Notes under the pieces: generated by a model | The model's input: the letters and a program-made list of their open reading frames with translations, nothing else | The model's database searches: none | Told to the model about the DNA's origin: nothing | Shown here: piece after piece, positions 8,372-60,811 of the stretch | How the letters are laid out: each line of letters opens with the position of its first letter | Position numbering within the stretch: position 1 is the first letter of the stretch | Source of the DNA: Luteimonas sp. | GTDB taxonomy: Bacteria > Pseudomonadota > Gammaproteobacteria > Xanthomonadales > Xanthomonadaceae | Length of the DNA: 64,000 nucleotides | Direction: 5' to 3' | Assembly (NCBI GenBank): GCA_035539095.1 | Contig: DATLJE010000009.1 | Coordinates: 265,071 to 329,070 of the forward strand | Position numbers and translations under genes: made by a program

Positions 8372-8378
8372 TTGATTC

Positions 8379-8438: not shown

Positions 8439-8450
8439 AGGAAAACCGCA

Positions 8451-10016
<1,566 letters not shown>

Positions 10017-10020
10017 GCAA

Positions 10021-10080
10021 TGCGCAGGGTGGGCCTTGGCCCACCTTCCGCGGCAACGGTGGGCCAGCGCCCACCCCACG
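10021..10080. repeat. REP-like element (ggtgggcc..ggcccacc hairpins)
   Basis: Two short hairpins in the atpA-atpG spacer. Confidence 0.55.
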
Positions 10081-10103
10081 TGACGGGATAGCGAGCAAAG
10101 CAG

Positions 10104-10967
10104 ATGGCCGGCGGCAGAGAAATCAAAACCAAGATCAAGAGCGTGCAGAACACCCGCAAGGTGACGCGCGCGCTCGAGATGGTCTCGGCTTCCAAGATCC
10201 GCAAGGCGCAGGAGCGGATGAAGTCGTCGCGCCCGTACGCGCGCGCGATGAAGCAGGTCATCGGCCACCTGGCGCAGGCGAACTCGGAGTTCCAGCACCC
10301 CTACCTGGTCGAGCGCGCGCAGATCAGGCGCGTGGGCTATGTCATCGTCTCCTCCGACCGCGGACTGGCCGGCGGCCTCAACAACAACCTGTTCCGCAAG
10401 CTGCTCGGCGAGATGCGCCAGTGGCAGGAGCAGGGCGTCGAGGTCGACGTGGTCACCATCGGCCAGAAGGCCTCGGTGTTCTTCCGCCGGATCAAAGTGA
10501 ACATGCTGGCCACCGTGACCCACCTGGGCGACACGCCGCGGGTGGAGCAGCTGATCGGCGTGATCAAGGTGATGCTGGACGCCTACAGCGGCGGCCAGGT
10601 CGACAAGGTGTTCCTGGCCTACAACGACTTCGTCAACACGATGACCCAGCGCGCGGCGTTCGACCAGCTGCTGCCGCTGCCGGCGTCCAACGACGCGGTC
10701 GCCCACCACGACTGGGACTACATCTACGAGCCCGACGCGCAGACCGTGCTCGAGCACGTGCTCACCCGCTACGTGGAGTCGCTGGTGTACCAGGCGGTGA
10801 TGGAGAACGTGGCTTCCGAGCACGCCGCGCGCATGGTCGCGATGAAGGCCGCGAGCGACAACGCCAGCAAGCTGATCGACACCCTGAACCTGGTCTACAA
10901 CAAGGCCCGGCAGGCGGCGATCACCCAGGAAATTTCCGAGATCGTGGGTGGCGCGGCAGCGGTGTAA
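10104..10967 (+). CDS. atpG: F0F1 ATP synthase subunit gamma
   Basis: [31 protein letters not shown] start and C-terminal [14 protein letters not shown]. Confidence 0.96.
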
Positions 10968-11017
10968 CAGGAACAACCGAGATCGTCGGCGGCGCTGCGG
11001 CGGTCTGACCCTTTCCT

Positions 11018-12530
<1,513 letters not shown>

Positions 12531-12539
12531 GGTTTGCAT

Positions 12540-12634
12540 CCCCTCTCCCGCCCGCGGGAGAGGGTCAGGGTGAGGGCCCGGCTTTTCGCCGCGCCCCTCG
12601 CCCCCACCCCGGCCTCCCCCGCAAGCGGGGGAGG
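12540..12634. repeat. REP-like three-hairpin element, same family as 3758-3862
   Basis: cccctctcccgcccgcgggagaggg, then ggtgagggc...gcccctcgcc, then cctcccccgcaagcgggggagg. It fills the atpD-atpC spacer. Confidence 0.75.
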
Positions 12635-12660
12635 GGGAAATGGAAGAGAAGCGTTTACTT

Positions 12661-13086
12661 ATGAGCAGCACCATCCGTTGCGACATCGTCAGCGCCGAGC
12701 ACGAGATCTTCCATGGCGAAGCCGAGATGATCGTGGCCACCGGCGAGATGGGCGAGCTCGGCATCGCGCCGCGCCACGCGCCGCTGATCACCCGGCTCAA
12801 GCCCGGCAAGGTGGTGGTCACCCAGCCCGGCGGCGAGGTGCTGGACTTCGCGATCTCCGGCGGCATCCTGGAGGTGCAGCCGCAGCTGGTCACGATCCTG
12901 GCCGACACCGCGGTGCGTGCGCAGGACATCGACGAGGCCGCGGTGCGCGCGGCGATGGAAGAGGCCGAGCGCGCGCTGGCCAACAAGGACCCGAAGATGA
13001 GCGCCGAGGAAGCGCAGACCCAGCTGGCGATGAGCATCGCCCAGCTCAGCGCGCTGGAGCGGCTGCGCAAGAACCTCAAGCACTGA
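12661..13086 (+). CDS. atpC: F0F1 ATP synthase subunit epsilon
   Basis: ATG at 12661 ([21 protein letters not shown]) within ORF 12640..13086. Confidence 0.93.
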
Positions 13087-13264: not shown

Positions 13265-13315
13265 CGAAAGGACACGACATTCCGCGGGCCCCGTCCCGGG
13301 TCGCCGTTCCTCGCC

Positions 13316-13699
13316 CTAGCGCTTGTAGACCCAGTGCCGCGACAGCACGAACCCGAGCACGCCCAGCGCCAGCTCGATCGCGGGCTTGGCCAGCCACGCC
13401 CAGCCCAGCCCGAACAGTTCGTCGATGTGGGTCATCGACCAGGTGCTGACCGCGGTGGTGCCCAGCCACATCAGCACGAAGCGCACGAGCTGGGTGCGGC
13501 CGACCGCGGTGTCCTCGCCGGCGAAGGTGAGCTTGCCGTTGAGCCAGTAGCCCAGCAGCGCGCCGCTCACGCGGCCGGCGACGTTGGCCGGGCCCACGCG
13601 CATGCCGAAGTGGCTCAGCGCGACCATCACCGCCCAGTCCACCAGCCACTGGATCCCGCCGATGAGCAGGTAGTGGCGGCCCTGCCGGGTCAGGCTCAT
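13316..13699 (-). CDS. GtrA-family membrane protein
   Basis: 127 aa, four hydrophobic segments. N-terminal [12 protein letters not shown] and C-terminal LSRHWVYKR are typical of GtrA-like proteins. Confidence 0.75.
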
Positions 13700-13836
13700 G
13701 CGCGGGAGGCGGCGGCGGGCGCGCGCGGCGGCGCGGCGGGGACGGCTTCGGGCATGGGCGCTGCGGGTCGTGGGCGTGGCCCCGCATCGTAATGCCAGCG
13801 CCGTTAGAATTCAGCGATTCCAGACAGGATCCCCGC

Positions 13837-15207
13837 ATGGCCACGCCGCTGCACGTCGTGATCCTCGCCGCCGGCGAGGGCAAGCGCATGAAGTCCTCGC
13901 TGCCCAAGGTGCTGCAGCAGGTCGCGGGCCGGCCGATGCTGGCGCACGTCGTCGACGTCGCGCGCGAACTGCAGCCGGCCGGCATCCATGTCGTTTACGG
14001 CCACGGCGGCGCGCAGGTGCTCGATGCCTTCGCCGGCCAGCCCGACCTGCACTGGGCCGAGCAGGCGCGCCAGCTCGGCACCGGGCACGCGGTGCAGCAG
14101 GCCATGCCCGGGATCCCGGACGAGGCGCGCGTGCTGGTGCTGTACGGCGACGTGCCGCTGATCACCGCCGCCAGCCTGCGGCGCCTGCTCGAGGCGCCCG
14201 GCCGCATCGCCGTGCTGGTCGCCGAGCCCGCCGATCCCACCGGCTACGGCCGCGTGCTGCGCGACACCGAAGGGCGGGTCGGCGCCATCGTCGAGCACAA
14301 GGACGCCGACGAGGAACAGCGTCGCGTGCGCACCATCAACACCGGCATCCTGGTCGCCGACGCGACCGCGCTCAAGGCATGGCTGGCGCGGCTGTCGAGC
14401 GACAACGCGCAGGGCGAGTACTACCTGACCGACGTGTTCGCGATGGCCGCGCACGAGTACACCGCGGCGGAGATGGTGATGGTCGACGACCCGCTCGAGA
14501 CCGAGGGCGCCAACGACCCCTGGCAGCTGGCGCAGCTCGAGCGCGCGTTCCAGCGCCGCGCGGTGCGCGTGCTGTGCGCGCAGGGCGCGCGCTTCGCCGA
14601 CCCGGCACGGGTGGACATCCGCGGCACGGTGAGCGTCGGCCAGGACGTCGAGATCGACGTCGATGTCGTCCTCGAGGGCCGGGTGGAACTCGGCGACGGC
14701 GTGCGCATCGGCCCGTTCTGCCGCATCCGCGACGCGATGCTGGCCGCGGGCACGCAGGTGCGCGCGCACTGCGACATCGACGGCGCGCGCACCGAGGGCG
14801 CGGTGCAGGTCGGCCCGTTCGCGCGGCTGCGCCCGGGCACGGTGCTCGCCGACGGCGTGCACGTGGGCAACTTCGTCGAGACCAAGAACGCGCGCGTGGG
14901 CGTGGGCAGCAAGGCCAACCACCTCACCTACCTCGGCGACGCCGAGGTCGGCGCCGGGGTCAACATCGGCGCCGGCACCATCACCTGCAACTACGACGGC
15001 GCCAACAAGACGACCACCACGATCGAGGACGAGGCCTTCATCGGCTCGAACTCCTCGCTGGTCGCGCCGGTGCGGATCGGCAAGGGCGCGACCATCGGTG
15101 CCGGCTCGGTGATCGGCAGCGACGCGCCGGCCGGCGAGCTCACCGTGGCGCGCGCGCGGCAGGTGACCATCGAGGGCTGGCAGCGGCCGAAGAAGAAGCC
15201 GAAGTAG
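13837..15207 (+). CDS. glmU: bifunctional UDP-N-acetylglucosamine pyrophosphorylase / GlcN-1-P acetyltransferase
   Basis: ATG at 13837 ([20 protein letters not shown]). C-terminal left-handed beta-helix hexapeptide repeats. Confidence 0.95.
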
Positions 15208-46935: not shown

Positions 46936-47061
46936 GTAGGGCGGGCCTTGGCCCGCGATGTGGGTCCCCGATCCGGTCGGCCCCCTCGCCGACCGGCGCC
47001 CCGCATCGCGGAACTCGATCGGGCGAAGCCAACCTCAGGCGGCGGGCCGGGGCCGCCCTAC
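46936..47061. repeat. REP-like arms (gtagggcgggccttggcccgc ... ggcgggccggggccgccctac)
   Basis: Same family as 8379-8438 and 20959-20996. The right arm overlaps the queD stop. Confidence 0.6.
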
Positions 47062-47414
47062 GGCCCGCGGTAGCGGCAGCCGGAGGTGCAGGTCTCGCGC
47101 ACCACCACCTCGCTCAGCTGCGGCAGCGCCGGCTTCAGGCGCTCCCAGATCCACGCGGCCAGCCGCTCGCTGGTGGGGTTCTCGAGGCCTTCGATGTCGT
47201 TGAGGTAGCGGTGGTCGAGCTGGTCGTACAGCGGACGGAACGCGGCCTTGATATCGCCGAAGTCCATCACCCAGCCGCTGTCGGCGCCGGGCTCGCCGGA
47301 GACGTGCAGCTCGATGCCGAACGAATGCCCGTGCAGCCGCGCGCACTTGTGCCCGGGCGGCACGTTCGGCAGCCGGTGCGCGGCCTCGACGGTGAAGGTC
47401 TTGAAGATGTCCAT
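47058..47414 (-). CDS. queD: 6-carboxy-5,6,7,8-tetrahydropterin synthase
   Basis: [10 protein letters not shown]...CARLHGHSF...Zn/His motifs, 118 aa. Confidence 0.92.
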
Positions 47415-47420
47415 CCGCGC

Positions 47421-48251
47421 TCATTCTACCGGCTCGCGCTCGCCGGCCTTGCGCGAATGGCGGTCGGGCGGCTGCGTGCGCTGGTGCTCGGCCACCCGCG
47501 CCTTGGCGGTCTCGCCGCGCGCGCCGACCACCATCTCGGTCAGCCAGGCGACCAGCACGGCGGTGTAGGCCTTCTGCATCGACTTGTCGCTCAGCGCGTG
47601 GTCGGCGCCGGCCAGCCTGCGCGCGGTGAGCGACTGCACGCCCGTGAACGCGGCCGCGTAGCTCTCGATCACCGGCCTCGGCACGATCTCGTCGTGCTCG
47701 GCCTCCACCAGCAGCACGTCGCCGTCGAACGTGGCGCAGGCGCGCAGCGCACGGTTGTCGCGCGCGTCGATGCGCTGGCGGCGGTAGGCGCGCAGGTCGG
47801 CGTCGCGGTGCAGCTGGCGCTTGGGCACGTCCCAGCCCGGGTCCATGTACAGCGCCGGCGAGCGCAGCGCGAGCCAGCGCACCGGCCGCATCGAGGACAG
47901 GATCGCGGCGAGGTAGCCGCCGTAGCTGATGCCGACCACGGCGATCGCGCCCGGGTCGACGTCGTGGCGCGCCGCGAGCCAGTCGTAGGCGGCCAGCAGG
48001 TCGTCGAGGTTCTGCGCGCGCGTCACCGTCTCCCACTGCGCGGCGTTGGCCTCGTGGCCGCGCAGGTCGAAGGTCAGGCACAGGCAGCCCAGCGCCGCCG
48101 CCTCGCGCGCGCGTACCAGGTCGTGCCGCTGGCTGCCGCCCCAGCCGTGCACGAACAGCACCGCCGGCAATCGCCGGGTCGGCGCCAGCAGGGTGCCGCT
48201 GAGGGTGTCGCCGTCCACTGCGATGGCGACCGGATCAAGTCGGGTGTCCAT
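47421..48251 (-). CDS. alpha/beta hydrolase (dienelactone-hydrolase/S9-like)
   Basis: [10 protein letters not shown], nucleophile elbow GISYGG, and later D...H (EHDEIV, ADHAL). Confidence 0.8.
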
Positions 48252-49416
48252 GACGTTCCACGATGCTGTACTTGGTCAACAGGCCCAGGGTCGGGTCGAC
48301 GTCGCGGTAGTGCACCACCGCGTGCGCGGGTGGGTCGTGCGCGCCGTGCACTTCGTGGCTCGAGGCGCGCACGGCCTGCAACTGTGGATCGGCCGCGAAG
48401 GCCTCGAGCGCGGCGATCTCCGCCGGGCTGGCGCCGCCGATCCGCCAGGATTGCTCGAGCACGCCCGAGCGCGGCTGCCCGTCGCGATCCAGCCCCTGCA
48501 CGATGTCGTAGTTGCAGCGCGAGGCGAAGAAGCGCGGGTACGCCTCGCGCATCGCCGCGTGGTAGCACTGCGCCTGCATGGCCGCGCGCTGCAGGTGGTC
48601 GTCCAGGCCGGCCGCGCGCAACGCCTCGAAGCCGCCGCGCACGGCAAGCAGGTCGGTGCCGCCGTACGCCGCGCCGCCGTTGCGGTCGGGCGTCGTGCGC
48701 TGGGTGCCGGCATAGGTGATGCGGACGCCGGCGCATTCCACCGTGCCGATGCTGCAGGTCGTCGCGTCCGCGAGATGCTGCTCGACGGTGGCGCCGTGGC
48801 GCGCGAGCTCGTCTTCCGCGATCGTGTCCAGCGCAGCATCGAGCGCGGCGAGATCGGGCACCAGCACCTGCCCCAGCCCGCCGGTGCCGCGCGCCAGCTT
48901 GAGCCGCAACGGGCCCAGGTCGAGCAGCTGCGCGCAGGCGCGCCGCGCGTCGCGACGCGAGAACACCGCGAAGCCCGGCAGCACCGCGTCGGCCAGGCAA
49001 CCACAGAGCGAGCGCGACCAGCCGACCGGCGCCGGCGAATCCTCGTCGACCAGCGGATGGCTGACCACCTTGGTGGCGATGAAGGCATACGGCACCACGC
49101 CGCCGAACAGGTCGTCGGCACCGGCGATGCCGAGCGCGCGCGCTCGCCTCGCCAGCAGCGTCTGCTCGGGCACGAAGTAGACGCGTTCCCCGCGCCGGCG
49201 CCGCGCCGCGCCGACGCCGGCGTATTCATAGCGATGCAATCGTGCCAGCCGACGCGCCAGCGCTTCGAGCGTGGCGAACTCGTGGCCGGTGCGCGCGCGG
49301 CCGCGGGCGGCGGGGACGATCGCGACGCGTCCGGCGGCCGCGTGCCGCCGCGCGGGTGCCGCTGCCGAAGTCGCCGCGTGGACCATGCGCGCAGGATCGG
49401 CGATCGCCGCGGACAA
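48235..49416 (-). CDS. conserved hypothetical protein (recalled as DUF3182-like; ATP-grasp-like fold suspected)
   Basis: 393-aa ORF with coding-type composition. Its 3' end overlaps the hydrolase start by 17 nt. The family assignment is from memory only. Confidence 0.55.
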
Positions 49417-49623: not shown

Positions 49624-51447
49624 ATGAACCGGGCAGTGCTTCTGATCGGGGTCAGCCGCACGGGCGGGCTTGGGACGCTCAAGGCGGTCGAGGACTCGAT
49701 CGACAAGATGGAAGCCTGGGCGCGGTCCCAGGGCATTCCCGACGCGCAGATCATCCGGCGCACCGATGCCGGTGGGCCGGTGACGATCGCGACCTTGTTC
49801 AAGGACGTCCGCGACCTGGCCGAACCGGGCACGATCGAGCAGCTGGTGATCTATTTCGCCGGCCACGGCGTGGTCAACAACCGGACCGAGTACTGGATGC
49901 TGTCCGACGCGCCGGACAACGCCGCCGAAGCGGTCAACGTCGCCAGCAACGTCTCGCTCGCCCAGGCCGGCGCCTTCGACCATGTCGTGCTGTTCTCCGA
50001 TGCGTGCCGCACGCCGACGCAGGGGCTGCAGTACGGCCGCGTCGTCGGCAGCGACATCTTCCCCAACATCGTCGACGTCGAGCTCGAGCGCCCCGTCGAC
50101 ATCTTCTTCGGCACCTCGCTCGGCGCGCCGGCGCTGGAGGTCAGGCAGGCCGAGCAGGGCAGACAGTACCAGGCGATGTACACAGAGGCGCTGCTGGAAG
50201 CGCTCGAAGGCAAGGTCGCCGACACCATCGTCGATGGCCGCGTGCGGCCGCGGCCGTTGAAGCGGGCGCTGCCGAAGCTGGTGCGCAGGAAGCTCGACGC
50301 GAGCGGATTGACGCTGGCGACCACGCAGACGCCAGATGCACGCGTCACCTCGGACGACGACGCCTGGCTGGCGGAAATCCCGCTGCCGGCCGCCGGCGCG
50401 CATCCGCCACCGGCGGGTCACAGGCCAGGGGCGGGGACGCCACCCGCTCCACCACCCGCCGCGCCGCAACCGCCGCCGCCGCCTCCGGACGTGGCTCCGC
50501 CCCCGATGACCACGCGCGAAGTCGCGCAGCTGGTCCTGGACGAGGCGCTGCGCACCGACACCTACGATCGCGCGCCGGCCACGCGGGAAGACATCAAGGC
50601 CATTACCGGCCGCGGCGTGACGCCGAACGCGGGCCGCCTCCTCGAGGCGATGGCCACGCGTACCGCCGATCGCCTGCCGCCCGTGCTGCCCGACCGCCCC
50701 GGGTTCGAGGTCCACGGGCGCGCGCTGGCGGACGCGACCTGTCCCGACGGCGACTGCCAGCTCGGGCAGGAAGGCGACGCCACCACCGTCGGCGTCGCGA
50801 CGACGCAGCCTCAGTCGCAGGTGCTGCTCGAGTTCGACGACGGGACGGGCGTGGTGCTGCCGGTCATCGAACGCTACGTCGGCGTCCTGCGCCTGCGCGA
50901 CGGCCGCCTCGACGAGGTCTGGTACGAGCCGGCGAACGACTTCGACGCATCGATGAGCAGGAAGGAGATCGAGTTCCTGCGCCAGGCGATCATCAAGGCG
51001 TCCGCGCTCGGCGAGTTCGCGCTGCAGGGAGAGGACGCGGACATGCTCGCGCAGCGCATGCAGAACATGAAGTTCCTCGACCCCGCGCTGGCGGTGTACG
51101 CCGCGTACGCCTTCCACGACATCGGCCAGTTCCGCCGCATCGGCCACATGCAGGACTACCTGCAGGCGCAGCTCGGCGTGCGGCTGTACGACCTGGCGCT
51201 GCTCTCGCGCGGCCTGCTCCGCGACGGCGACCTGGCCGACCAGTGCACGCCGCGCCTGCCCCTGCTCTCGCAGGGCTGGGCGCTGGTCGACGCGCTGCGC
51301 GGCCGCATCCCCGGCAAGCTCGATCCGCTGCGCAGGGAGCTGCGGCCCTCGCTGTGGTCGCTGTACACGCCCGAAGGCACCGTCCTGCTGCGCGAATGGA
51401 TGCAGGAGCAGCGCCATCCCGCCATGGCCATGGGAGCCACGTCATGA
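49624..51447 (+). CDS. caspase-like (clan CD, C14-type) protease domain protein with poly-Pro linker and uncharacterised C-terminal domain
   Basis: ATG at 49624. LLIGVS..., His motif IYFAGHG, Cys motif LFSDACRT, then PPAPPPAAPQPPPPPPDVAPPP, then ~270 aa that I cannot assign. Confidence 0.75.
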   Translation: MNRAVLLIGVSRTGGLGTLKAVEDSIDKMEAWARSQGIPDAQIIRRTDAGGPVTIATLFKDVRDLAEPGTIEQLVIYFAGHGVVNNRTEYWMLSDAPDNAAEAVNVASNVSLAQAGAFDHVVLFSDACRTPTQGLQYGRVVGSDIFPNIVDVELERPVDIFFGTSLGAPALEVRQAEQGRQYQAMYTEALLEALEGKVADTIVDGRVRPRPLKRALPKLVRRKLDASGLTLATTQTPDARVTSDDDAWLAEIPLPAAGAHPPPAGHRPGAGTPPAPPPAAPQPPPPPPDVAPPPMTTREVAQLVLDEALRTDTYDRAPATREDIKAITGRGVTPNAGRLLEAMATRTADRLPPVLPDRPGFEVHGRALADATCPDGDCQLGQEGDATTVGVATTQPQSQVLLEFDDGTGVVLPVIERYVGVLRLRDGRLDEVWYEPANDFDASMSRKEIEFLRQAIIKASALGEFALQGEDADMLAQRMQNMKFLDPALAVYAAYAFHDIGQFRRIGHMQDYLQAQLGVRLYDLALLSRGLLRDGDLADQCTPRLPLLSQGWALVDALRGRIPGKLDPLRRELRPSLWSLYTPEGTVLLREWMQEQRHPAMAMGATS

Positions 51448-52331
51448 AACAGCTGATCTTCATCCACGGCCGCTCGCAGCAGGAGAAGGACGCCGTCAAG
51501 CTCAAGCAGGAATGGATCCAGGCATGGAAGAAGGGCCTGGCCAAAGGTGGCCTGCCGATGCCGATCGACGAGGCGCACATCCGCTTCCCGTACTACGGCG
51601 ACACGCTCGCCCAGATGGTCGGCGGCGCCAGCGCGGACGACGCGGCGAAGATCATCGTGCGCGGCGCGGAGCAGAACCCGGCCGCCGAGCAGTTCCTCTC
51701 CATGCTGCTGCAGCAGTACATCGACGGCGCGGGGATCACCGACGACGAGATCGAGGCGCAACTGCGCGCCGAGGCGCTCGTGCTCGAGCGCGGGCCGCAG
51801 AACTGGGGCTGGGTGCAGGCGGTGCTGCGCGCCATCGACAGGCGCACGCCCGGTGGCGGCGCGTTGATCGCGCTGGTCACCAACGACGTGCACCAGTACC
51901 TGGTCAACCTGGACCTGCGCAGGCACATCGAGGACGGCGTGCTCAAGGCCATGGACCCGGACAGCGAGAACGTGGTCGTCTCGCATTCCCTCGGCACCGT
52001 GGTCGCCTACACCGCGCTGCGCCGGCTGGCGGCGGAAGGCCAGGCGTGGCGCGTGCCGTTGCTGGTCACCCTGGGTTCGCCGCTGGGCATCCGCGCGATC
52101 CGCGGCAAGCTGCGCCCCATCGGCCACCCGGCCTGCGTGACGCGCTGGTTCAACGCCTACGATCCCAACGACGTGGTGTCGCTCAACCCGCTGGACGCAA
52201 AGAACTTCGCCATCACCCCTGCGATCGAGAACAAGGGCGACGTGGACAACGGGACGGACAACCAGCACGGCATCGTCGGCTATCTCGACGACGCGGTGGT
52301 CGCGCGAAGGATCCACGAGGCGCTTGCGTAG
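51444..52331 (+). CDS. alpha/beta hydrolase (lipase/esterase-like), function unknown
   Basis: Its ATG overlaps the upstream stop (ATGA). LIFIHGR, nucleophile elbow SHSLG, later YDPNDVV and QHG. Confidence 0.75.
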   Translation: MKQLIFIHGRSQQEKDAVKLKQEWIQAWKKGLAKGGLPMPIDEAHIRFPYYGDTLAQMVGGASADDAAKIIVRGAEQNPAAEQFLSMLLQQYIDGAGITDDEIEAQLRAEALVLERGPQNWGWVQAVLRAIDRRTPGGGALIALVTNDVHQYLVNLDLRRHIEDGVLKAMDPDSENVVVSHSLGTVVAYTALRRLAAEGQAWRVPLLVTLGSPLGIRAIRGKLRPIGHPACVTRWFNAYDPNDVVSLNPLDAKNFAITPAIENKGDVDNGTDNQHGIVGYLDDAVVARRIHEALA

Positions 52332-52462: not shown

Positions 52463-52480
52463 TGGCTATGGGTGGAATCG
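52463..52480. repeat. distal att repeat of the tRNA-Met island (tggctatgggtggaatcg)
   Basis: 17/18 identical to the tRNA 3' end at 60604-60621. A 10-bp partial re-duplication (ggtggctatg) lies at 52483-52492. Confidence 0.8.
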
Positions 52481-52549
52481 CGGTGGCTATGCTTCCGCCC
52501 CGTAGCGCCCTAGTCGTTTCAATGGCTTGCGGACCCGCCGGAGCCCGCA

Positions 52550-52581
52550 CTGTAGCAAACGCTGTAGCACATGCTGTAGCG
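52550..52581 (+). repeat. three CTGTAGC(A/G) units phased at 12 bp (candidate integrase arm-type sites, left arm)
   Basis: Units begin at 52550, 52562 and 52574. The same order (A, A, G) occurs at 60509-60540. Confidence 0.65.
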
Positions 52582-52856
52582 AATGGTGGGCCGCTTTCGT
52601 CCCCTCGCGGCAACGGTTCCCCCGGGGCATATTTCGCGGTGGTCCCCTCGCGGCAACCTATCGGGCCCCTTCATGGCATACCTTGGGTGTCGACCCGCTC
52701 CGGGCCGACAACGGAACCTGCCATGCGAATCTCCCTCGCTCTGGAATCCCTGCTCCCGCAGGAACGCGCCTCGCGCTTCACCGTCACCCGCGAACGCTAC
52801 GGCCGGCACGTCGCCGTGGTCGCCTTCGGTCGTCGCTTGCTGGTCGACTTGATCCG

Positions 52857-53372
52857 CTAGCGCATTCGCTCGATCACCCAAGCGCGTTGGTCCTGCGTCC
52901 ACGCTTCGGCGGGTTTGTAGTCGGCGGCGCGCTCGGGTGGTCTCTCGTGCCGGAGCTGTAGCGCGAGCTGTAGCATCGGCCGGTACTCGGTCACGAACTG
53001 GGCCGACTCCGCGCACCCTGCCGTGGCCTCTCGCTCGATCCGCTCCCACTGGTCCAGCAGCCGGGGCCGGTCGGGGCTAAGCCCTCTCAGGTCGGCGTCA
53101 TTGTCCGGGGGCGGTATCCATCCCCAGCGGGACCCGCCGCTCCGGTCCGTGTGCTTGCCCTCGACCTCAGCCGCTAGCCTCTCGATTCCCTGCGCGCAGC
53201 TCTTGAGCCGCGACCGTAGCGCATAGCGCGCTCGCTGCTCGGCCGTCTGGGGCTTCCTGCGGGCCCTGTCGCGGGCGCTGCGGTCCATCTTGGCCAGCGC
53301 CTGGGCCAGCGCCTCGGCCACCTCGGGGCAGCCTTCGGTGGCCCCTCCGGGGGCATCCCGGGGGTTTGTCAT
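52857..53372 (-). CDS. hypothetical protein (island)
   Basis: ATG at 53372 with GTGAGGA upstream, within ORF 52857..53414. No recognisable motifs. Confidence 0.55.
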   Translation of the reverse strand: MTNPRDAPGGATEGCPEVAEALAQALAKMDRSARDRARRKPQTAEQRARYALRSRLKSCAQGIERLAAEVEGKHTDRSGGSRWGWIPPPDNDADLRGLSPDRPRLLDQWERIEREATAGCAESAQFVTEYRPMLQLALQLRHERPPERAADYKPAEAWTQDQRAWVIERMR

Positions 53373-53465
53373 GGCTAAATCCTCACTGAATGAAATGTTA
53401 AATAGTGGCCTCAACCGGCCACACTAGCGCGCCTCTGTTCCGGCCGGGGCTTAACAATTCCGCGG

Positions 53466-54326
53466 CTACCATTCGCCCCTGTCGATCGCCTCAGCCAACC
53501 TCCGGTCCACCTCAGGGACCCCCGCGGCTCCTTCTTCGGGCTCCGCCTCGACGTCCGCAAGCAACCCCCGAAGTGCCACCGCGACAAGCTCCCGCGGGAG
53601 GTCCTTTGCGTACCGCGCCACCTGTCGCTGCAACTTCCCAATTCGCCAATCCTCGTACTGGCCCGGAGTCATTTCATCGCGCAGCCCGTTGCGGATCGTG
53701 TGCCGCACGTAGCGCCACTGAGGGAACCCCGAAGCGCCATCGCGGTGGTCCTTCGGGTAGCGTTCGGGGTCCACCTCAGGGAGCCGTGCAAGCATCCTCG
53801 CCACGGTGTCCCGACTAATCCCGAACTCAAGCGCGATGCTTCGCTCCGAACTCCCCGGGGGCAGCTTCAGTGATCCCCCGGCGGTGAGTCCGGCTAGGTG
53901 CTGCCACGCCTGTTCCCTGAGCTGGTCGCGGTGCATCGGCAGCTTCACCCCGTCGAGATTCACCAACCGGGAAAGCCTTCCCGCTGTCCGCCAATCCATC
54001 ACTCGAACGCGAGCCGGCAGCCGTGCGCGTCCTGCGCGTTGGTACGCCCTGAGCCGGTGGTGTCCGTCGGTGACGAATAGCTCTCCGGCGATACTCGCCA
54101 CAAGCAACGGCTCAAGCTCTGCCGCGGCACTGAGCCTCAGCACGCCGGTCATGCGCTCGATATGTTCCTCGCTCTGCGCTTCCTGCCTCGCCTGATCCCG
54201 GAGTGACAGCAGCGCCATGTTCCGCGGCTGAAGCGCGGGGTTCTGCCTGACCTCCTTTACCTCGATCTGCCGCGGTTCGGTCTCGCGCCATTCTTCAAGC
54301 CTTGCGGCTAGTGTCTTTGTCTGCAC
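53466..54326 (-). CDS. ParB/Srx-like nuclease N-terminal domain protein with HTH
   Basis: VTDGHHRLRAY (DGHHR motif of the ParB N-terminal domain) and an HTH-like SIALEFGISRDTVARML. GTG start. Confidence 0.75.
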   Translation of the reverse strand: MQTKTLAARLEEWRETEPRQIEVKEVRQNPALQPRNMALLSLRDQARQEAQSEEHIERMTGVLRLSAAAELEPLLVASIAGELFVTDGHHRLRAYQRAGRARLPARVRVMDWRTAGRLSRLVNLDGVKLPMHRDQLREQAWQHLAGLTAGGSLKLPPGSSERSIALEFGISRDTVARMLARLPEVDPERYPKDHRDGASGFPQWRYVRHTIRNGLRDEMTPGQYEDWRIGKLQRQVARYAKDLPRELVAVALRGLLADVEAEPEEGAAGVPEVDRRLAEAIDRGEW

Positions 54327-54338
54327 TGAAGGTGGCCC

Positions 54339-54518
54339 CTAGTGGTCGGAGGGTGGCGGCACCTGCGCCAGCAACTCGGCTAGCACCTCGCTGTTCGTCA
54401 TTGGCCTACCGCGCTGCGTCTCCATCTGGCGCTGGTACGCCTTGAGCTTATCGAACGCGGGCACCTCGAACGAAATGGTGCGATAGACCAACGTCTCTAC
54501 CCTGCGCTCAGCGTCCAT
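54339..54518 (-). CDS. 59-aa protein, possible ribbon-helix-helix DNA binder (below ORF-track cutoff)
   Basis: Hand-translated: MDAERRVETLVYRTISFEVPAFDKLKAYQRQMETQRGRPMTNSEVLAELLAQVPPPSDH. GGAGGAG lies 7 nt upstream. Confidence 0.55.
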   Translation of the reverse strand: MDAERRVETLVYRTISFEVPAFDKLKAYQRQMETQRGRPMTNSEVLAELLAQVPPPSDH

Positions 54519-54684
54519 CGGTGAACTCCTCCCCGCTCGCTACTCGGCGCAGCCGCTCGGCCAGCCGGCGGGCAATGATGCCTTCCAGCACGGCATTGTC
54601 TGGAGTGTCCGCGCGGTAGGGATACCATCCGTCGATTAGATGCGCGGCGGCTTCTACGCCTGCGCGTTCGTGGTCCTGAATCAT
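54508..54684 (-). CDS. 58-aa hypothetical protein (below ORF-track cutoff)
   Basis: Hand-translated: MIQDHERAGVEAAAHLIDGWYPYRADTPDNAVLEGIIARRLAERLRRVASGEEFTDGR. ATGA overlap with the HNH gene stop. Its 3' end overlaps the next start by 11 nt. Confidence 0.5.
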   Translation of the reverse strand: MIQDHERAGVEAAAHLIDGWYPYRADTPDNAVLEGIIARRLAERLRRVASGEEFTDGR

Positions 54685-55202
54685 GTTGATGCCTCTTCGA
54701 TGTAGCGGAGTACCTGGGCCACTTCGTCGTCGGTGACGCCACGCGCGGTGGTCTCGCCGTAGTCCATGCCTTCAAGTCGCGCCCTGAGCCGGTCGGGGCT
54801 GTGATCGCGCTTGATGCGGTTAGCGCGGAGGGAGATAACCTGCACGTTCCCCGGGACATAGCCCGCGGCCGGGTCGATGCGGTCAAAGCTCGGCGATGCG
54901 TCGGTGTGCTCTCCGCTGTAGTCGAGCACCAGTCCTAACACTGGGCACACCTTCGGGGCACCCCCGGGGCACGCCTCGGCGAGCGTGATCGCAAACGGGA
55001 TGCCTTCGCGCTTTGCGTCGGCCTTGCGGGTCCTGAGGTTCAACCTCAAGCGGCCTTCTGGTGTCGCTGCGGTGGCCGCATACCAACGCCGCCACTGTGC
55101 GCGCCGCTTATCCGGATTCGCTGCCTTCCATCGTCGCCGCCGCTGCCGTGCCGCCTCTTTCTGCTCTGGCGTCATCCGCGCCCATCGCTCAGCGGTCGGC
55201 AT
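54681..55202 (-). CDS. HNH-type endonuclease-like protein
   Basis: ATG at 55202. CPVLG...SFDRIDPAAGYVPGNVQVISLRANRIK resembles phage HNH nucleases. Confidence 0.65.
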   Translation of the reverse strand: MPTAERWARMTPEQKEAARQRRRRWKAANPDKRRAQWRRWYAATAATPEGRLRLNLRTRKADAKREGIPFAITLAEACPGGAPKVCPVLGLVLDYSGEHTDASPSFDRIDPAAGYVPGNVQVISLRANRIKRDHSPDRLRARLEGMDYGETTARGVTDDEVAQVLRYIEEAST

Positions 55203-55440
55203 CGCTCGCCTCCAGCGCAGCGCGCGCCTCCGCTGTGGTGGTCCGGAACAGCCCGGACAGCATCCCGGCATTGACGAAAGCCGGGAGGTCTCCGTCTCCA
55301 TCCTTCGCAGCTTCAAGAAACCGCCGCATCCGTTCCCGGCGGTCGGCCTTGGCTGCATCCGCTCCGCGCCCTACTCGGGGGAGGGTATTGTCGAAGGCGG
55401 CGGCTAGCGCGGCCTCCATTCTCTGGCGCATTACGCTCAT
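55189..55440 (-). CDS. hypothetical protein (island)
   Basis: 83-aa ORF. Its end overlaps the HNH start by 14 nt. Confidence 0.5.
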   Translation of the reverse strand: MSVMRQRMEAALAAAFDNTLPRVGRGADAAKADRRERMRRFLEAAKDGDGDLPAFVNAGMLSGLFRTTTAEARAALEASDADR

Positions 55441-55603
55441 TCTGTTTCTACCTCGATTGATTGATTGATCTGAAACAGCGAAGCCCGCCGCTTCGGCGCG
55501 TTCTCCTACTGCCCCGGGACCTTGATCCCTGAGGGTTCGGGCGCGCTTCCACGGCGGGCCTTGCTGCCGGCGGAGTGCTACCGCCTAAGGTGTTCGGCCC
55601 GGA

Positions 55604-56158
55604 TTAGCCCGCGCTGCGTCGCTGCGCCTTCATCCGCTCGGCCAGTGCGCGCGCGTCATCTTCAAGGACCAATTCCTGTGCTCGCGCTTCAACGCGGGCC
55701 TTGTGCTGGCGCTCGGCGTCCAGCTTCTCCAGCTCGGTTGGTACGTGATCGGCTCGCCACTGCGCAGCAGCCGCGACCATCTTCCGCACGCCCGGGAGCT
55801 GTACCGCCTCCTTGAAATAGAGCGCCTTCTCCCGCGTAGTGCGCGCATCGCCCTGATACCGGTAAACCGGTTCGCCCGTTTGCGCGTCATAGCGGATCAC
55901 CTCCGCCAGCTCTGCGCGCATCCGCGCCACTTCCCGCTCAAGGTCCGCGACCTGCGCCGGGTCCGCGGCGGCTGCGCTGAAGTACGGCTCAGCGCCCGGA
56001 GGCCCCAGCGTGGAACTCTTCTGGATCGCCAGCCGGCCGCCCATGAGGTAACGCTTGTCCAGCGATTCCGGGGCATTCCCGCTCCAGCGGTTGGCCTCCA
56101 GCAAGCCATCATCGAGCGCCGCCTGACTCGCGGGGCTCAGCTTTACATCTTCGTTCAT
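55604..56158 (-). CDS. hypothetical protein (island)
   Basis: ATG at 56158 (the ORF track starts at a TTG at 56182). Coiled-coil-like C-terminus. Confidence 0.55.
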   Translation of the reverse strand: MNEDVKLSPASQAALDDGLLEANRWSGNAPESLDKRYLMGGRLAIQKSSTLGPPGAEPYFSAAAADPAQVADLEREVARMRAELAEVIRYDAQTGEPVYRYQGDARTTREKALYFKEAVQLPGVRKMVAAAAQWRADHVPTELEKLDAERQHKARVEARAQELVLEDDARALAERMKAQRRSAG

Positions 56159-56244
56159 TCGTCTTTTCCGTATCGCAGGCAAAGAGAACCCATCACCGCG
56201 CGGCCTGCGCGCGCAGCGTGGGGTGGTGTTGATTGGTGGTGTCT

Positions 56245-56874
56245 CTACTCGGCCGGCGCGAACGGCACGGCCAAGCCTTCGCGGATCGTGGCCGCGGTTC
56301 TTTCTGGGCCTAGCACCTCGTCGCGGATCGCCTTCGCTGCCACCAAGGGCAACGCTCCAAGGGACTGGCGAACATGCTCTCCCAGCGCCCGCGCATGGCT
56401 GGCAGTGGTGCGGGTCTGTTCCTTCCTGCCCGAAGGCGCAACGCTCTTCACGGGTCGGGGTGCGCAGCGCAGCAGCGCCCGCCCCATATTCGTGTCGAAA
56501 ACGCGGTCGTCATTCAACGCGCGCGGAGAAAGGTCTTCTTGCAGCCAAAGCGCAATCGCCGCGGCCAGCATCGCCCGCGGGTCCGTCCCATTCCTGAGCC
56601 GGGCCATTTCCCCCGCGAGGAAGCGCGCCCCTTCCTGCTCAGACACAAGTTCCCGCAGCCAATCCACGGCGGCCACCACGGACGGGTGCCCCGCGTTCCT
56701 GTCGACCCACTCCCGGGCAATCTCCCGGTACGGCTTCAGCTCTTGCTTGCGGATGATTCTCCCGGTGGCCCCGCCGGTGGTCCGGGCGCGCTCGAAGTGG
56801 TGCTCGCAATACCGGCTCCAGCGCCGCGCCCTGCGATTGCAGCCGTCGACGCAGCAGCGTTCGTATTCGGTCAA
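56245..56874 (-). CDS. hypothetical protein with N-terminal Cys/His cluster (CCVDGC...YCEHH)
   Basis: TTG start preceded by AGAGGA. 209 aa. Confidence 0.55.
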   Translation of the reverse strand: MTEYERCCVDGCNRRARRWSRYCEHHFERARTTGGATGRIIRKQELKPYREIAREWVDRNAGHPSVVAAVDWLRELVSEQEGARFLAGEMARLRNGTDPRAMLAAAIALWLQEDLSPRALNDDRVFDTNMGRALLRCAPRPVKSVAPSGRKEQTRTTASHARALGEHVRQSLGALPLVAAKAIRDEVLGPERTAATIREGLAVPFAPAE

Positions 56875-57430
56875 GTGTGTTTCCTCTGGTCATGGTGAAG
56901 GGGCCCCCGCAGTCCACTGCGGTTGCCTCTGTCGGGGTCAAAAAAGGGAGCCCGTCGAACGCACGGGCAGCGCCCGGGAACGGGTGGTGTTCTTCTATTA
57001 GGGACGCAATCGCTTAGCCCGCTCTACGGGCCGGTTACGGCTGCCGCTTTGTTAGTACGCAACCTGACATTCGCAGGGTCCCCTCGGGTGGTCCTGAGGT
57101 GCCCTTGAGGTGCCCATGTAGTGGCCCCTTGGTGTATGGGCTCCGCCCCTTGTGCTAGTAGTCATAGTGACATTTGGTTGCCCCGCGGGGACCTGCCGCC
57201 TGAGCCCTACCCAGCGGCCCTACAGGGGCCACCTGAGCGCCCCGCCGCCGCCTCCGTCCCCGGCCCGGGGCGGCCCGAATCAGCCAGTGCCGGCGGTCTC
57301 CCGGGCTGTCTGCCGGGGCGGTCGGTCGGCTGGTCTCTATCGAGTAGTCGCCCAATCGGTTAACCCGCTCTAGGGGCCGTGGAACATTTTCGTGGAACAG
57401 CGCCATACTGGGGGCCGAACGGCCGCCCGC

Positions 57431-58108
57431 CTAAGCCTGCGCCTCCCGGGCCAGCAGCCCCCGCACGCTCGACTTGTGCCACCCCTTCCCCTGTAGCGTC
57501 CGCACGCCCCGGGCGTTCAATGCCTGCGCCAACGCGCCCAGGCTCTCCACGCCCTGCGCCCGAAGCTCCGCGACGATCGGCAGGACCTTGGCAGCGTGGG
57601 CCCCGGCCTTGGCACTGGCCGCGGCTGTAGCGGCCCCTGTGCCCTTCCCAGCCCTGCGGATCGCCTCGGCCCCGTTGGGGTTCCCCAGCTTCACCCCGCG
57701 CCGCTTAGCGGCTGCCAGCGCCTCCCGGGTGCGCCGGCTGATAGCCTCGCGTTCCCGCTGCGCCATGATCGCCATGATCCCTACCGTGGTTTCGTCCGCG
57801 TTGGGCATGTCGGCCGCGACGAACTTCACCCCGCCGTTTTGCAGCCTCAGCAGGAACTCCGCGTTGCGGCTGAGCCGGTCCAGCTTGGCAATGACCAACG
57901 TCGCCCCGGTGACGTCCGCGAGCTGTAGCGCCTTCGCCAGCTCCGGGCGGTCGTTGTCCTTCCCGCTCTCCACCTCGGTAAACGCGGCCGTGATCGTCCC
58001 CCGCACGCTCTGGGCGTACTGGTCGACCGCGTGCCGCTGCGCTTCCAACCCCAGCCCGGAGCGGCCCTGGCGGTCCGTGGAAACGCGGTAGTAGGCGACT
58101 AGCTTCAT
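57431..58108 (-). CDS. serine recombinase (resolvase/invertase family)
   Basis: MKLVAYYRVSTDRQ catalytic-Ser motif, LVIAKLDRLSRN, C-terminal HTH-like region. Confidence 0.9.
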   Translation of the reverse strand: MKLVAYYRVSTDRQGRSGLGLEAQRHAVDQYAQSVRGTITAAFTEVESGKDNDRPELAKALQLADVTGATLVIAKLDRLSRNAEFLLRLQNGGVKFVAADMPNADETTVGIMAIMAQREREAISRRTREALAAAKRRGVKLGNPNGAEAIRRAGKGTGAATAAASAKAGAHAAKVLPIVAELRAQGVESLGALAQALNARGVRTLQGKGWHKSSVRGLLAREAQA

Positions 58109-58566
58109 GGGGTGGCACTCCATCTAACGGGCGTTAGACGGATTTGTACGCCCCGGGTGCGCGCCCTGTCAAGCGGGCGGCTGCTCTGGGCCTAGGGCGT
58201 CCAGTGGGCCGGGGCGGCTGCTCTGGCCTAGTACCAGCACAACCGGCGAAGGGGTCACCGAATCCACTACGTCCTAAGGCGCGGCGCGGGCTGCCCGGGT
58301 GGCGTGTGCCGAAGCGTGCCCGGGGTGGTGTCTCTGGCTCTCTAGAGCGGAACCGGAGGGTGCCCCCGCGGTGGCATCGCCGGGTTGTCCCCGGTCCTCG
58401 CGCGGTCCTCCCTAGGTGCGCCGCGGTGGCCTGCGCGGGCCATTCGGCGGCCACCCCCTACGGGGGAAACGGGCCACGGCCGCCCGATCGAGGGGCGCTC
58501 GATGGTTTGAGCAATTTTCGGCACCTTGCGGCAGGCGCTACAGTCGCAAGCGCGAAGGGGGCACCA

Positions 58567-59109
58567 ATGCGAATCCGCCAAAAGCCGGAAGGCGTCGAAG
58601 ACTACCAACGGGGCATGAAACAGGCGCTCCGCCTACTGAAAGAGATTCCTTCGGACGCCTTCAAGTGGACCGGGGCGGTGGCCGCTATCGCGGCAATCCA
58701 TGTCGCCGACGAGCGCACCCATTCGGCATGGCTCCAATGGATGGGTTACGCCTTGTCCATCCTGTTGGTCGCTTGGATGCAATATTCCTTCTATCGTCTC
58801 GGCTTGACCAAGCACCCGGAACGGCGCGAGCGGGACGGGGCAGTAGTGATCGACTTTCGCTTGTGGAAGTTGGCCCTCGGCGCCGTCCTTTGCGTGTTGT
58901 CGTACTGGTTTGCCTTCTATCTACCGAAGGTGATTGCGGGGAGTGACTTGCTGCAAACAGTCGCCACTACACCGGCAACCGTAGCTGCCCCAGCGCCCCG
59001 GCCAGTGCCGCGAGGTCCGTCGTCTTCCCATACCGCCCAACCGGCATCGAATCCAACTCGTGCCCCAGCAGGTCCGCAATCTGGTACTCCGGCACCCCCG
59101 CATCCTTAA
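58567..59109 (+). CDS. small membrane protein (three predicted TM helices) with Pro-rich tail, island cargo
   Basis: AAGGGGG Shine-Dalgarno sequence and ATG at 58567. A/T-richer codons than the surroundings. There is no stop before 59109, so it overlaps the integrase 3' end by 143 nt. Confidence 0.5.
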   Translation: MRIRQKPEGVEDYQRGMKQALRLLKEIPSDAFKWTGAVAAIAAIHVADERTHSAWLQWMGYALSILLVAWMQYSFYRLGLTKHPERRERDGAVVIDFRLWKLALGAVLCVLSYWFAFYLPKVIAGSDLLQTVATTPATVAAPAPRPVPRGPSSSHTAQPASNPTRAPAGPQSGTPAPPHP

Positions 59110-60517
59110 GCCTGGCCGATACCGTGTGCCGGAAGCTATGCGCCGCCGTCTTCTTCGGATCGGTGACGCCTGCATCCCGCAGTCGCCGCGCTAGCAGCTT
59201 CGATAGCTTGTCCACTGCGCCGCGCTTCGGGTTGTCGGTGGTGCGCCACTGCGCATCGAACAGGTGGCCCGCAGGTGCGCCCTCAGTCCACTTCAACAGC
59301 CCCAGCTCGACCAACCGCGGATGCACGGGCACAAGCCGGCGGCTCCCCGGGGTCTTGAGCTGCTTCCCTTCGGTGTCGTCGTTCACGTCGATGACCCAAG
59401 CCTCTCCCTCGCGGCGAATGTCCGCCGTCGTGAGCTGCGCCGCTTCGCCAAGCCGCAGCCCTGAGTACGCCATGATCCGGGGAAGCCAACGCAATTCTGG
59501 CCGCTTCGGCTCTTGGTCGAGCTTGGCAAAGTAGGTGCGCAAGTCGTCGTCGGTGAAGGGCCGCCGGTCATCGCGTGCGCGTCGTTCCTTCACGTCTCGC
59601 AACACTTCGGCGGGATTCTTCGGAATCGTGTCATGCTCGGTCGCCCACGCGAACAGCGAGCGCGTTAGCTGTTGGTACTTGTTGACGCTGCGCGGTTCCA
59701 GCCGGGGAACGCTCGGGTCCCCTTCGGTGGCCTTCAGGACCTCCCGCGGTGTCTTCCCCGGGAACTTCTTCCCCATGTTCGCCGGTAGCTGCGTGATCGC
59801 GTGGCCTAGCTGGCGCATGTCTTCCTTCGTGACGTCGCCAATCTGCGGATCGCCCAGCAGCTCCGCGACGGTTTGCAGAATGGTCCGGTGGAGGTGTTCT
59901 GTCTTCGGTGACCATTTCCGCAGCGAAACGCGCTCGTCTCCGTAGAGCCGCGCCACCTCCGAAACCCGCGGGGTTTCCTTCGGTGCCTCCGCAGTGGCCC
60001 CGCGGTGTTCCGTGGGCCTGCGCAGCGGATTGCCGGCAAGCGCCTTTAGCTCTGCCGTCACGGCTTCAAGCTTCGCCTCAATCAAGCGGCGGGCCAGCTT
60101 GCGGCGGGTGGTGTCTTCGCCTTCGAGTAGCAGCGTGCGCGCCAGCTCCGCGAACTCGCCTAGCTCGGCATTAGCGAGTAGGCCGCTCAGCCGGTGCGCT
60201 TCGTCGTTCAAGTCGAAGCGGTGCGCGTCCAGCCCGGGGCCTTCCCACTCAAGGGCTAGCCGGTCTTCGATCTCGTCGAAGCTCGCCGCAAGGTAGCGGC
60301 GGGTGATCTGGTCTAGCTGGTCGGCGGTCATTGGCCGGCGTCGCACCCCTGCGAACAATGTCCCGAGGTGAGTCTCCCACAACGCCAAGCGGCGGGCCGC
60401 CTCGCGGGGGTCCGCGGTGGATAGGGAGCGGGTGATTTCGGATCGGCCCAAGGTGTCCCGAAGGTCGGCCGGGACTGCGATCCGCGAAGCGTAGGAACTG
60501 CCGCGTCTCTGTAGCAT
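58967..60517 (-). CDS. tyrosine recombinase / phage-type integrase
   Basis: C-terminal catalytic region HSFRHTVSARL...LLGHE...GRYGK. Adjacent to the tRNA. ATG at 60517 is preferred over the TTG at 60586. Confidence 0.9.
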   Translation of the reverse strand: MLQRRGSSYASRIAVPADLRDTLGRSEITRSLSTADPREAARRLALWETHLGTLFAGVRRRPMTADQLDQITRRYLAASFDEIEDRLALEWEGPGLDAHRFDLNDEAHRLSGLLANAELGEFAELARTLLLEGEDTTRRKLARRLIEAKLEAVTAELKALAGNPLRRPTEHRGATAEAPKETPRVSEVARLYGDERVSLRKWSPKTEHLHRTILQTVAELLGDPQIGDVTKEDMRQLGHAITQLPANMGKKFPGKTPREVLKATEGDPSVPRLEPRSVNKYQQLTRSLFAWATEHDTIPKNPAEVLRDVKERRARDDRRPFTDDDLRTYFAKLDQEPKRPELRWLPRIMAYSGLRLGEAAQLTTADIRREGEAWVIDVNDDTEGKQLKTPGSRRLVPVHPRLVELGLLKWTEGAPAGHLFDAQWRTTDNPKRGAVDKLSKLLARRLRDAGVTDPKKTAAHSFRHTVSARLKDAGVPEYQIADLLGHELDSMPVGRYGKTTDLAALAGALGQLRLPV

Positions 60518-60540
60518 GGTCTGTAGCACTCCCTGTAGCG
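60509..60540 (+). repeat. three CTGTAGC(A/G) units phased at 12 bp (candidate arm-type sites, integrase-proximal)
   Basis: Units begin at 60509, 60521 and 60533. They overlap the integrase start region. Confidence 0.65.
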
Positions 60541-60603
60541 CGGGGGCTAGGACCACTGAAGCGACGTGTTCGCCCTGCGTGTTCAAGGGCTTGCAGAATG
60601 GTA

Positions 60604-60677
60604 TGGCTATGGGTGGACTCGAACCACCGACCCCAGCATTATGAGTGCTGTGCTCTAACCGGCTGAGCTACATAGCC
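60604..60677 (-). tRNA. tRNA-Met (CAT), elongator type
   Basis: The minus strand reads GGCTATGTAGCTCAGCCGGTTAGAGCACAGCACTCATAATGCTGGGGTCGGTGGTTCGAGTCCACCCATAGCCA. Cloverleaf fold, G1-C72 pair, close to E. coli elongator tRNA-Met. Confidence 0.9.
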
Positions 60678-60811
60678 AAGGGGCGCTTCCCGCGCAGGGA
60701 AGCCGCGAATTATTCCCGGATCGGGCCCCCGCCGTCAATTCACGCCCCGGTCGCTTGTCGGCCCGGCGCCGCCGTGGCAGAGTCGATGGCAGTGAATTCG
60801 GAGTCCGCATC

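Follow-up and report, generated by a model that had tools for sequence, protein, structure and literature searches.

The closest described relative of the locus reported here is the LcCaspase/LcHydrolase module of Lysobacter capsici AZ78. According to the available text of a bioRxiv preprint (Evans et al., 2025, PMC12642450), LcCaspase cuts LcHydrolase after Arg73 and Arg117, both of which are followed by Gly (R-G sites), yielding fragments of 8.1, 4.7, and 19.8 kDa, and this cleavage requires the catalytic Cys129 of the protease. The split N- and C-terminal fragments of LcHydrolase together kill Escherichia coli, and the cleaved protein does not degrade nucleic acids. The same text describes a link between LcHydrolase relatives and proteases that carry fused sensor domains, STAND among them, and attributes the earlier in silico prediction of the protease-hydrolase link to Kaur et al. 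(2020, 2021) and Burroughs & Aravind (2020). Here, we analyzed a gene pair in a 64-kb stretch of a Luteimonas sp. genome (contig DATLJE010000009.1; the whole stretch is referred to as the window), in which a gene for a caspase-like cysteine protease (gene A) overlaps a downstream gene for a lipase-like alpha/beta hydrolase (gene B). The pair has the folds, catalytic sets, cleavage motifs, and tight, conserved gene coupling of the L. capsici system, and we consider it very probable that its two genes make up a self-contained protease-effector module of the LcCaspase/LcHydrolase type.

Orthology and protein architecture

Gene B is 76% identical to LcHydrolase (KWS02470.1) over its full length of 295 residues, and gene A is 64% identical, also at full length, to the L. 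capsici caspase WP_153018843.1. The L. capsici AZ78 proteins KWS02470.1 and KWS02471.1 both appeared among the homologs in a cluster look-up. In the alignments, Cys128 of gene A occupies the position of the published catalytic Cys129, and gene B retains R73-G74 and R116-G117 at the published LcHydrolase cleavage sites. Based on the full-length identities and on the aligned Cys and cleavage sites, we conclude that the window pair is an ortholog of the characterized module. It is an intact, ordinary copy of something already known, predicted in 2020-21 and characterized biochemically in a November 2025 preprint. The two pairs share a two-gene architecture (594 and 296 amino acids [aa] in L. capsici; 607 and 295 aa in the window), the catalytic Cys, both R-G sites, and the Ser-Asp-His set, and their hosts belong to the same bacterial order. 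They differ in that the window pair comes from another genus (a Luteimonas metagenome-assembled genome), sits at another genomic location, and has a longer Pro-rich linker; furthermore, the L. capsici pair has been studied by experiment, whereas the window copy is known from sequence. The window is assigned to Luteimonas because a Luteimonas sp. protein at NCBI is 100% identical to gene B.

Sequence profiles matched gene A weakly. The Pfam family PF00656 (Peptidase_C14), suggested in an earlier note on this DNA as a profile for the N terminus, gave an E value of 4.8e-4, slightly below the gathering score, and the PADLOC “caspase” model gave an E value of 1.8e-4. The score against NCBIfam NF047832 (caspase_w_EACC1) was 34.6 bits (cutoff, 140); we rejected gene A as an EACC1-associated caspase given this score and a partner that is an alpha/beta hydrolase, not the pore-forming EACC1 protein. 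An AlphaFold2 model built on an alignment of 43 homologs (predicted local distance difference test [pLDDT], 85; predicted template modeling score [pTM], 0.85) was more informative. In Foldseek searches, the modeled N-terminal domain resembled MALT1 paracaspase, plant and yeast metacaspases, caspase-9, and caspase-7 (best E = 3.7e-9). His81 and Cys128 are invariant among the 43 homologs, and the family profile places His81 opposite the histidine of the GHG motif in Arabidopsis metacaspase-4 (YFaGHG versus HYSGHG). At the level of the predicted structure, a caspase fold with a His/Cys dyad, as the earlier note had supposed, is confirmed for the N terminus.

A Pro/Gly-rich, hypervariable linker, differing in both length and sequence among homologs, joins this domain to a C-terminal region modeled as short helices, an eight-stranded beta sandwich (residues 360 to 436), and a helical bundle (residues 439 to 597). 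Ten residues of this region (G365, P413, R453, D486, Y495, D523, P546, G551, W552, and W578) are invariant among the 43 homologs. Comparison of the region with Protein Data Bank (PDB) sequences by phmmer returned only noise, no fold was found for it in the PDB or in BFVD (viral), and Foldseek searches with the full-length model yielded caspase-domain matches only. Clustered at 50% identity, relatives of the domain number 935, almost all in proteins of 570 to 650 aa with the same architecture. Because these relatives share one caspase-linker-domain layout, we assign the domain to this protease family and, given the near-uniform architecture, rule it out as a widely distributed, portable sensor module. 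Candidate roles include sensing, oligomerization, and substrate docking.

The best Pfam match of gene B had an E value of 0.036, and no match to it was found in PADLOC v2 or NCBIfam; the module is still absent from PADLOC v2. In the AlphaFold2 model (pLDDT, 88), a long helical insertion (residues 52 to 170) interrupts an alpha/beta-hydrolase fold, and the structural neighbors in Foldseek were weak matches to lipases or phospholipases (Archaeoglobus fulgidus lipase, the Nir2 DDHD domain, PLA1, TleB, and PlaB). Ser182, Asp240, Asp243, and His275 are invariant in all 85 distinct hydrolase homologs. With the modeled fold, this confirms gene B as a predicted lipase-like alpha/beta hydrolase with an intact Ser-Asp-His set, and its activity is probably that of an esterase or lipase. 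The predicted cleavage sites are almost as well kept: (R/K)G is present at site 1 in 83 of the 85 homologs and at site 2 in 81, and G74 and G117 are invariant.

The earlier note, made from the sequence alone, had described several features that we recovered in full. These include the caspase-like order of LLIGVS (residues 6 to 11), IYFAGHG, and LFSDACRT in gene A; the Pro-rich run that follows; the LIFIHG motif, SHSLG elbow, and Asp/His candidates of gene B; and the ATGA overlap of the gene A stop with the gene B start, which suggests translational coupling. The long family-less stretch that it placed after the linker comprises about 310 residues (residues 300 to 607) with no match in Pfam, NCBIfam, or PADLOC. 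Its statement that neither protein has a signal peptide also stands, because both N termini are modeled as the buried first beta-strand of their fold, with pLDDT values above 90.

Linkage and partners across the family

We scanned one genome per species with a hydrolase profile, recovered 305 loci, and based the counts below on the 80 best. These 80 span the Pseudomonadota, Acidobacteriota, Actinomycetota, Planctomycetota, Gemmatimonadota, and Nitrospirota, and their partner domains were scored with local hidden Markov models (HMMs). The protease C-terminal domain is encoded directly upstream of the hydrolase, on the same strand, in 75 of the 80 loci. A complete caspase domain accompanies it in 71 of these 75; of the other four, three are truncated by contig ends, and L087 is degraded. 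Stop and start codons overlap in 59 of the 75 linked loci (-4 in 42 of them, -1 in 17), and at L056, A and B form a single uninterrupted reading frame.

At L087, the apparent decayed copy consists of only the last ∼140 residues of the protease C-terminal domain upstream of an intact hydrolase, which retains its catalytic residues and (R/K)G sites.

Other proteases can take the place of gene A. A CHAT protein partners the hydrolase at two loci (L057 and L059), an S8 subtilase and an MBL-fold protein are encoded directly upstream of it at two more (L058 and L089), and at L046, a 1,200-aa caspase-like protein is encoded downstream. The protease partners of the hydrolase are interchangeable, comprising the caspase with its C-terminal domain, CHAT, and S8 plus MBL. 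A TIR-like open reading frame (ORF), recognized from its N-terminal motif only, lies near the hydrolase at both L058 and L089.

The earlier note had proposed a two-gene sensor-protease and hydrolytic-effector module outside the named defense systems. The two-gene protease-hydrolase module is upheld by the caspase fold, by the adjacency of the two genes in 75 of the 80 genomes, which represent many phyla, by the non-core location described below, and by the experiments on the ortholog in the available text of PMC12642450. Its novelty is not, as that text had already published the module and the Aravind group had predicted it in 2020-21.

Table 1. Positions of the gene pair and associated features in the window and, by locus number, at other hydrolase loci
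Sequence	Feature	Position	Strand	Remark
Window	Gene A, caspase-like cysteine protease	49624-51447	+	607 aa; ORF and translation
Window	Gene A, caspase (clan CD) catalytic domain	49624-50370	+	residues 1-249
Window	Gene A, catalytic His81	49864-49866 (codon)	+	in motif IYFAGHG
Window	Gene A, catalytic Cys128	50005-50007 (codon)	+	in motif LFSDACRT
Window	Gene A, Pro-rich disordered linker	50371-50514	+	residues ∼250-297; translation, pLDDT 40-58, variable alignment
Window	Gene A, family-specific C-terminal domain	50515-51444	+	confidently folded in AlphaFold2 model; conserved residues
Window	ATGA stop/start overlap of A and B	51444-51447	+	read as GTC ATGA AAC
Window	Gene B, putative alpha/beta-hydrolase zymogen	51444-52331	+	295 aa; LcHydrolase ortholog
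Window	Gene B, predicted cleavage site 1, Arg73-Gly74	51660-51665	+	alignment with published LcHydrolase Arg73-Gly
Window	Gene B, predicted cleavage site 2, Arg116-Gly117	51789-51794	+	alignment with published LcHydrolase Arg117-Gly
Window	Gene B, Ser182 (SHSLG)	51987-51989	+	invariant in homologs
Window	Gene B, Asp240 / Asp243	52161-52163 / 52170-52172	+	invariant in homologs
Window	Gene B, His275	52266-52268	+	invariant in homologs
Window	Three-gene run upstream of gene A	47058-49416	-	divergent
Window	Attachment (att) repeat	52463-52480		
Window	Match of att repeat in tRNA-Met 3' end	60604-60621		17/18 bases
Window	Integrative island	52463-60621		8.1 kb
Window	tRNA-Met	60603-60678	-	sole tRNA in window
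Window	30-residue tblastn match	58739-58828		treated as chance
L056	A and B as a single reading frame	7757-10906		
L057	CHAT partner	10859-12949		
L059	CHAT partner	8557-9900	-	
L058	S8 subtilase and MBL-fold protein	7141-9995		
L089	S8 subtilase and MBL-fold protein	6568-9935		
L046	1,200-aa caspase-like protein	1053-4652		
L087	Apparent decayed copy	9586-10891		
L001/L002	Thoeris-like pair	10686-12045		
L003	Thoeris-like pair	13300-14664		
L004-L007	Thoeris-like pair	6471-7840		
L044	Thoeris-like pair	11079-13027		
L093	Thoeris-like pair	7554-7976 and 10876-12451		
L065	Thoeris-like pair	11636-11914		

Genomic setting, proposed mechanism, and alternatives

None of the window genes flanking the pair was found within 10 kb of it at any other locus, including that of Lysobacter sp. 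Root690. The genes compared were those for LysR, a phasin, a QueD-like 6-pyruvoyl-tetrahydropterin synthase, a DLH-type hydrolase, and a DUF3182 protein upstream and the island genes downstream. Because no flanks are held in common between loci, the pair appears to move as a two-gene cassette. A conserved core-genome locus, which the earlier note had named as the contrary case, was ruled out, as none of the 80 other loci has a flanking gene in common with the window. We also took a census of neighboring genes, covering the first 130 of 294 neighboring ORFs (from ∼35 loci). Each of the 163 Pfam families in it was limited to three ORFs at most, and the genes were mostly housekeeping; this census is qualitative because the gene caller was only roughly accurate (the window LysR gene was called on the wrong strand). 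Matches to defense genes were scattered through it (NERD plus UvrD, LmuA, an Avs1a-like protein, subtilase, SAVED-CHAT, and caspase). With mostly housekeeping neighbors and scattered defense matches, the defense-island signal is partial.

Downstream of the pair, the att repeat TGGCTATGGGTGGAATCG agrees with the tRNA-Met 3' end at 17 of 18 bases, and two matches of this repeat occurred in none of 100 shuffles of the window. This 18-nt direct repeat bounds an 8.1-kb integrative island at the tRNA-Met 3' end, with genes for a DUF6538/phage-integrase protein beside the tRNA, a resolvase, a ParB_N-domain protein, and several small family-less ORFs. The A/B pair stops 131 bp before the att repeat and is outside the island, where the earlier note had placed it. 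We sought an older island boundary that would enclose the pair and rejected it, finding no further tRNA-Met att copy in the window with up to three mismatches allowed. On the other side, directly upstream of gene A, a divergent three-gene run encodes a DUF3182 protein (383 to 393 aa), a DLH/Peptidase_S9-type alpha/beta hydrolase (276 aa; its gene overlaps that of the DUF3182 protein), and the QueD-like 6-pyruvoyl-tetrahydropterin synthase (118 aa), followed by the phasin gene. This run adjoins the module at no other locus.

In the mechanism that we propose for the pair, gene B would be made as an inactive alpha/beta-hydrolase zymogen. Gene A would cut it after Arg73 and Arg116, freeing a 43-aa inhibitory middle piece from the lid/core-sheet region, and what is left would assemble into an active, cell-killing Ser-Asp-His enzyme. 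The protease would be kept inactive pending the detection of phage infection or of some other stress, possibly via the C-terminal domain; the substrate of the hydrolase may be a membrane lipid and the outcome abortive infection. On this scheme, the pair may have an anti-phage function.

Several observations weigh against this scheme and bear on whether the pair is antiviral at all. Double cleavage in the window pair and toxicity of its N- and C-terminal fragments would follow from homology and motif conservation, both having been demonstrated for the L. capsici ortholog alone. In vitro, LcCaspase cuts LcHydrolase without any trigger, and the available text of PMC12642450 reports no phage protection, trigger, or substrate for that pair. 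The guanine-plus-cytosine (GC) content of the window pair (0.69 to 0.72) is near that of the chromosome (0.73 to 0.75; island, 0.63 to 0.68) and so gives no sign of recent acquisition. Ordinary metabolic and regulatory genes fill most neighborhoods examined, with defense genes a minority. Conservation is asymmetric, with protease partners falling to 31 to 45% identity, whereas the hydrolase keeps at least 50% identity across phyla (Pseudomonadota to Acidobacteriota, Planctomycetota, and Actinomycetota) and 46 invariant positions among 36 sequences (alignment A2), a level that is high for a defense effector. The same cleave-to-activate chemistry could instead serve a stress-triggered or addiction-type cell death or dormancy cassette, or the maturation of a lipid or ester enzyme of normal physiology. 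This explanation would account for the strong conservation of the hydrolase, the predominance of housekeeping genes in the census, the location of the pair among metabolic genes in Achromobacter, Bryobacterales, and the window, and the lack of a reported phage phenotype; general stress-response roles for protease-effector modules are also raised by Evans et al. in the available text (PMC12642450). We nevertheless regard it as unlikely. The killing of E. coli by the split LcHydrolase fragments (PMC12642450, available text) is more in keeping with an executioner than with a housekeeping enzyme, accessory conflict genes typically show the kind of patchy, cassette-like distribution without common flanks that is seen here, the pair repeatedly adjoins TIR/caspase systems and other defense genes, and relatives of the hydrolase are linked to the sensor-fused proteases described above.

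The TIR/caspase neighbors raise a different question. Type IV Thoeris combines a TIR protein with a caspase-like protease activated by N7-cyclic ADP-ribose (N7-cADPR), and the available text on that system describes the caspase as promiscuous, cutting after Arg and slightly favoring sites flanked by small residues (Rousset et al., 2025). At least five lineages have Thoeris-like pairs, consisting of a ThsB-type TIR protein of ∼123 to 140 aa and a caspase of ∼325 aa, beside or interleaved with the module, and the gene order varies. In Dyella, Arthrobacter, Accumulibacter, Rhizobacter (L044), and Hydrogenophaga (L093), the TIR and caspase genes are within 3.5 kb of the module, and in Hydrogenophaga a single strand carries all of the genes, arranged as TIR, A, B, caspase, TIR. 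The TIR and caspase proteins are 62 to 78% identical among Dyella, Arthrobacter, and Accumulibacter, whereas the adjacent modules there are only 39 to 50% identical, and the modules beside Thoeris share no more than this with one another, except for L004 versus L093. Because the modules are mutually 40 to 50% identical, the pairing with Thoeris arose or persisted in separate lineages.

The pair might on this evidence be an accessory arm of type IV Thoeris, either because its hydrolase is also fired by the Thoeris caspase or because the gene A C-terminal domain binds the TIR-made nucleotide. Since the Thoeris caspase is a promiscuous P1-Arg protease, cross-activation of an R-G-gated zymogen is chemically plausible, and the small-residue preference in the available text of Rousset et al. 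is compatible with R-G. Still, we judge such an arm to be highly improbable. Neither a TIR protein nor a Thoeris-type caspase was detected by tblastn in the window; with the Accumulibacter proteins as queries, no TIR was found, and for the caspase only gene A itself was recovered (22% identity). A 30-residue tblastn match within the island (E = 0.005), considered as a hidden TIR/Thoeris gene, was treated as chance. Against a local HMM built from three Thoeris-type caspases, gene A homologs scored at most 30 bits, compared with 270 to 670 bits for true members, and the identification of the window pair as type IV Thoeris was rejected on this score and on the lack of a TIR in the window. In addition, the gene A C-terminal domain has no detectable similarity to that of the Thoeris caspase, the association was found in only 3 of the 80 hydrolase-seeded loci, the protease of the module is sufficient in vitro (PMC12642450, available text), and adjacency could reflect mere clustering in defense islands. 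A broader version would make the R-G-gated hydrolase zymogen a shared executioner for several Arg-specific caspases, with TIR/N7-cADPR signaling feeding into a two-tier cascade at combined loci and the window copy being a minimal form triggered via its protease C-terminal domain. We hold this to be unlikely. Combined loci of the kind that it envisages are those of Hydrogenophaga, Accumulibacter, Dyella, Arthrobacter, and Rhizobacter. A self-contained protease-effector pair is the reading that we retain.

Significance and comparison with known systems

The window locus is probably a clean, intact example of protease-gated bacterial cell killing, with the same logic as animal caspase/gasdermin or caspase/CAD. 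Because its ortholog has already been dissected, the window copy adds little alone. The family offers comparative handles, namely, the conserved hydrolase core, interchangeable proteases, the single-frame A/B locus, and repeated Thoeris adjacency. Neither the Thoeris adjacency nor the interchangeable protease partners are discussed in the available published text on the module. The residual interest is modest and concerns these two features along with the trigger, substrate, and antiviral role of the family.

Bacterial gasdermin systems reportedly consist of a caspase-like protease together with a zymogen that forms pores (Johnson et al., 2022). They resemble the module in that an adjacent protease, of clan CD or another type, frees an autoinhibited death effector by site-specific cleavage. 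The effector there is a pore former, whereas here it is an enzyme, an alpha/beta hydrolase. One cut removes a C-terminal peptide in gasdermins, whereas two cuts excise an internal piece in the hydrolase module (PMC12642450, available text).

At L058 and L089, where the hydrolase lies directly downstream of the S8 protease and MBL genes, the module meets a second known type, the protease-activated modules with an MBL-fold nuclease. MBL modules generally occur as fusions to established sensors, for example, Avs or Hachiman. According to the available texts, these systems share with the hydrolase module a zymogen, two cleavages, and an interchangeable protease (Evans et al., 2025; Tuck et al., 2025, PMC12799240). 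They differ in the effector, which is a Zn-dependent double-stranded DNA nuclease there, whereas cleaved LcHydrolase leaves nucleic acids intact (PMC12642450, available text).

Type IV Thoeris differs from the window locus, which is without a TIR gene; moreover, the Thoeris caspase is promiscuous, whereas the module protease has a dedicated substrate, and the C-terminal domains of the two proteases are unrelated in sequence. The likeness lies in a caspase-like protease that cleaves after P1 Arg and carries a C-terminal domain without an assigned fold, encoded adjacent to the module in several genomes.

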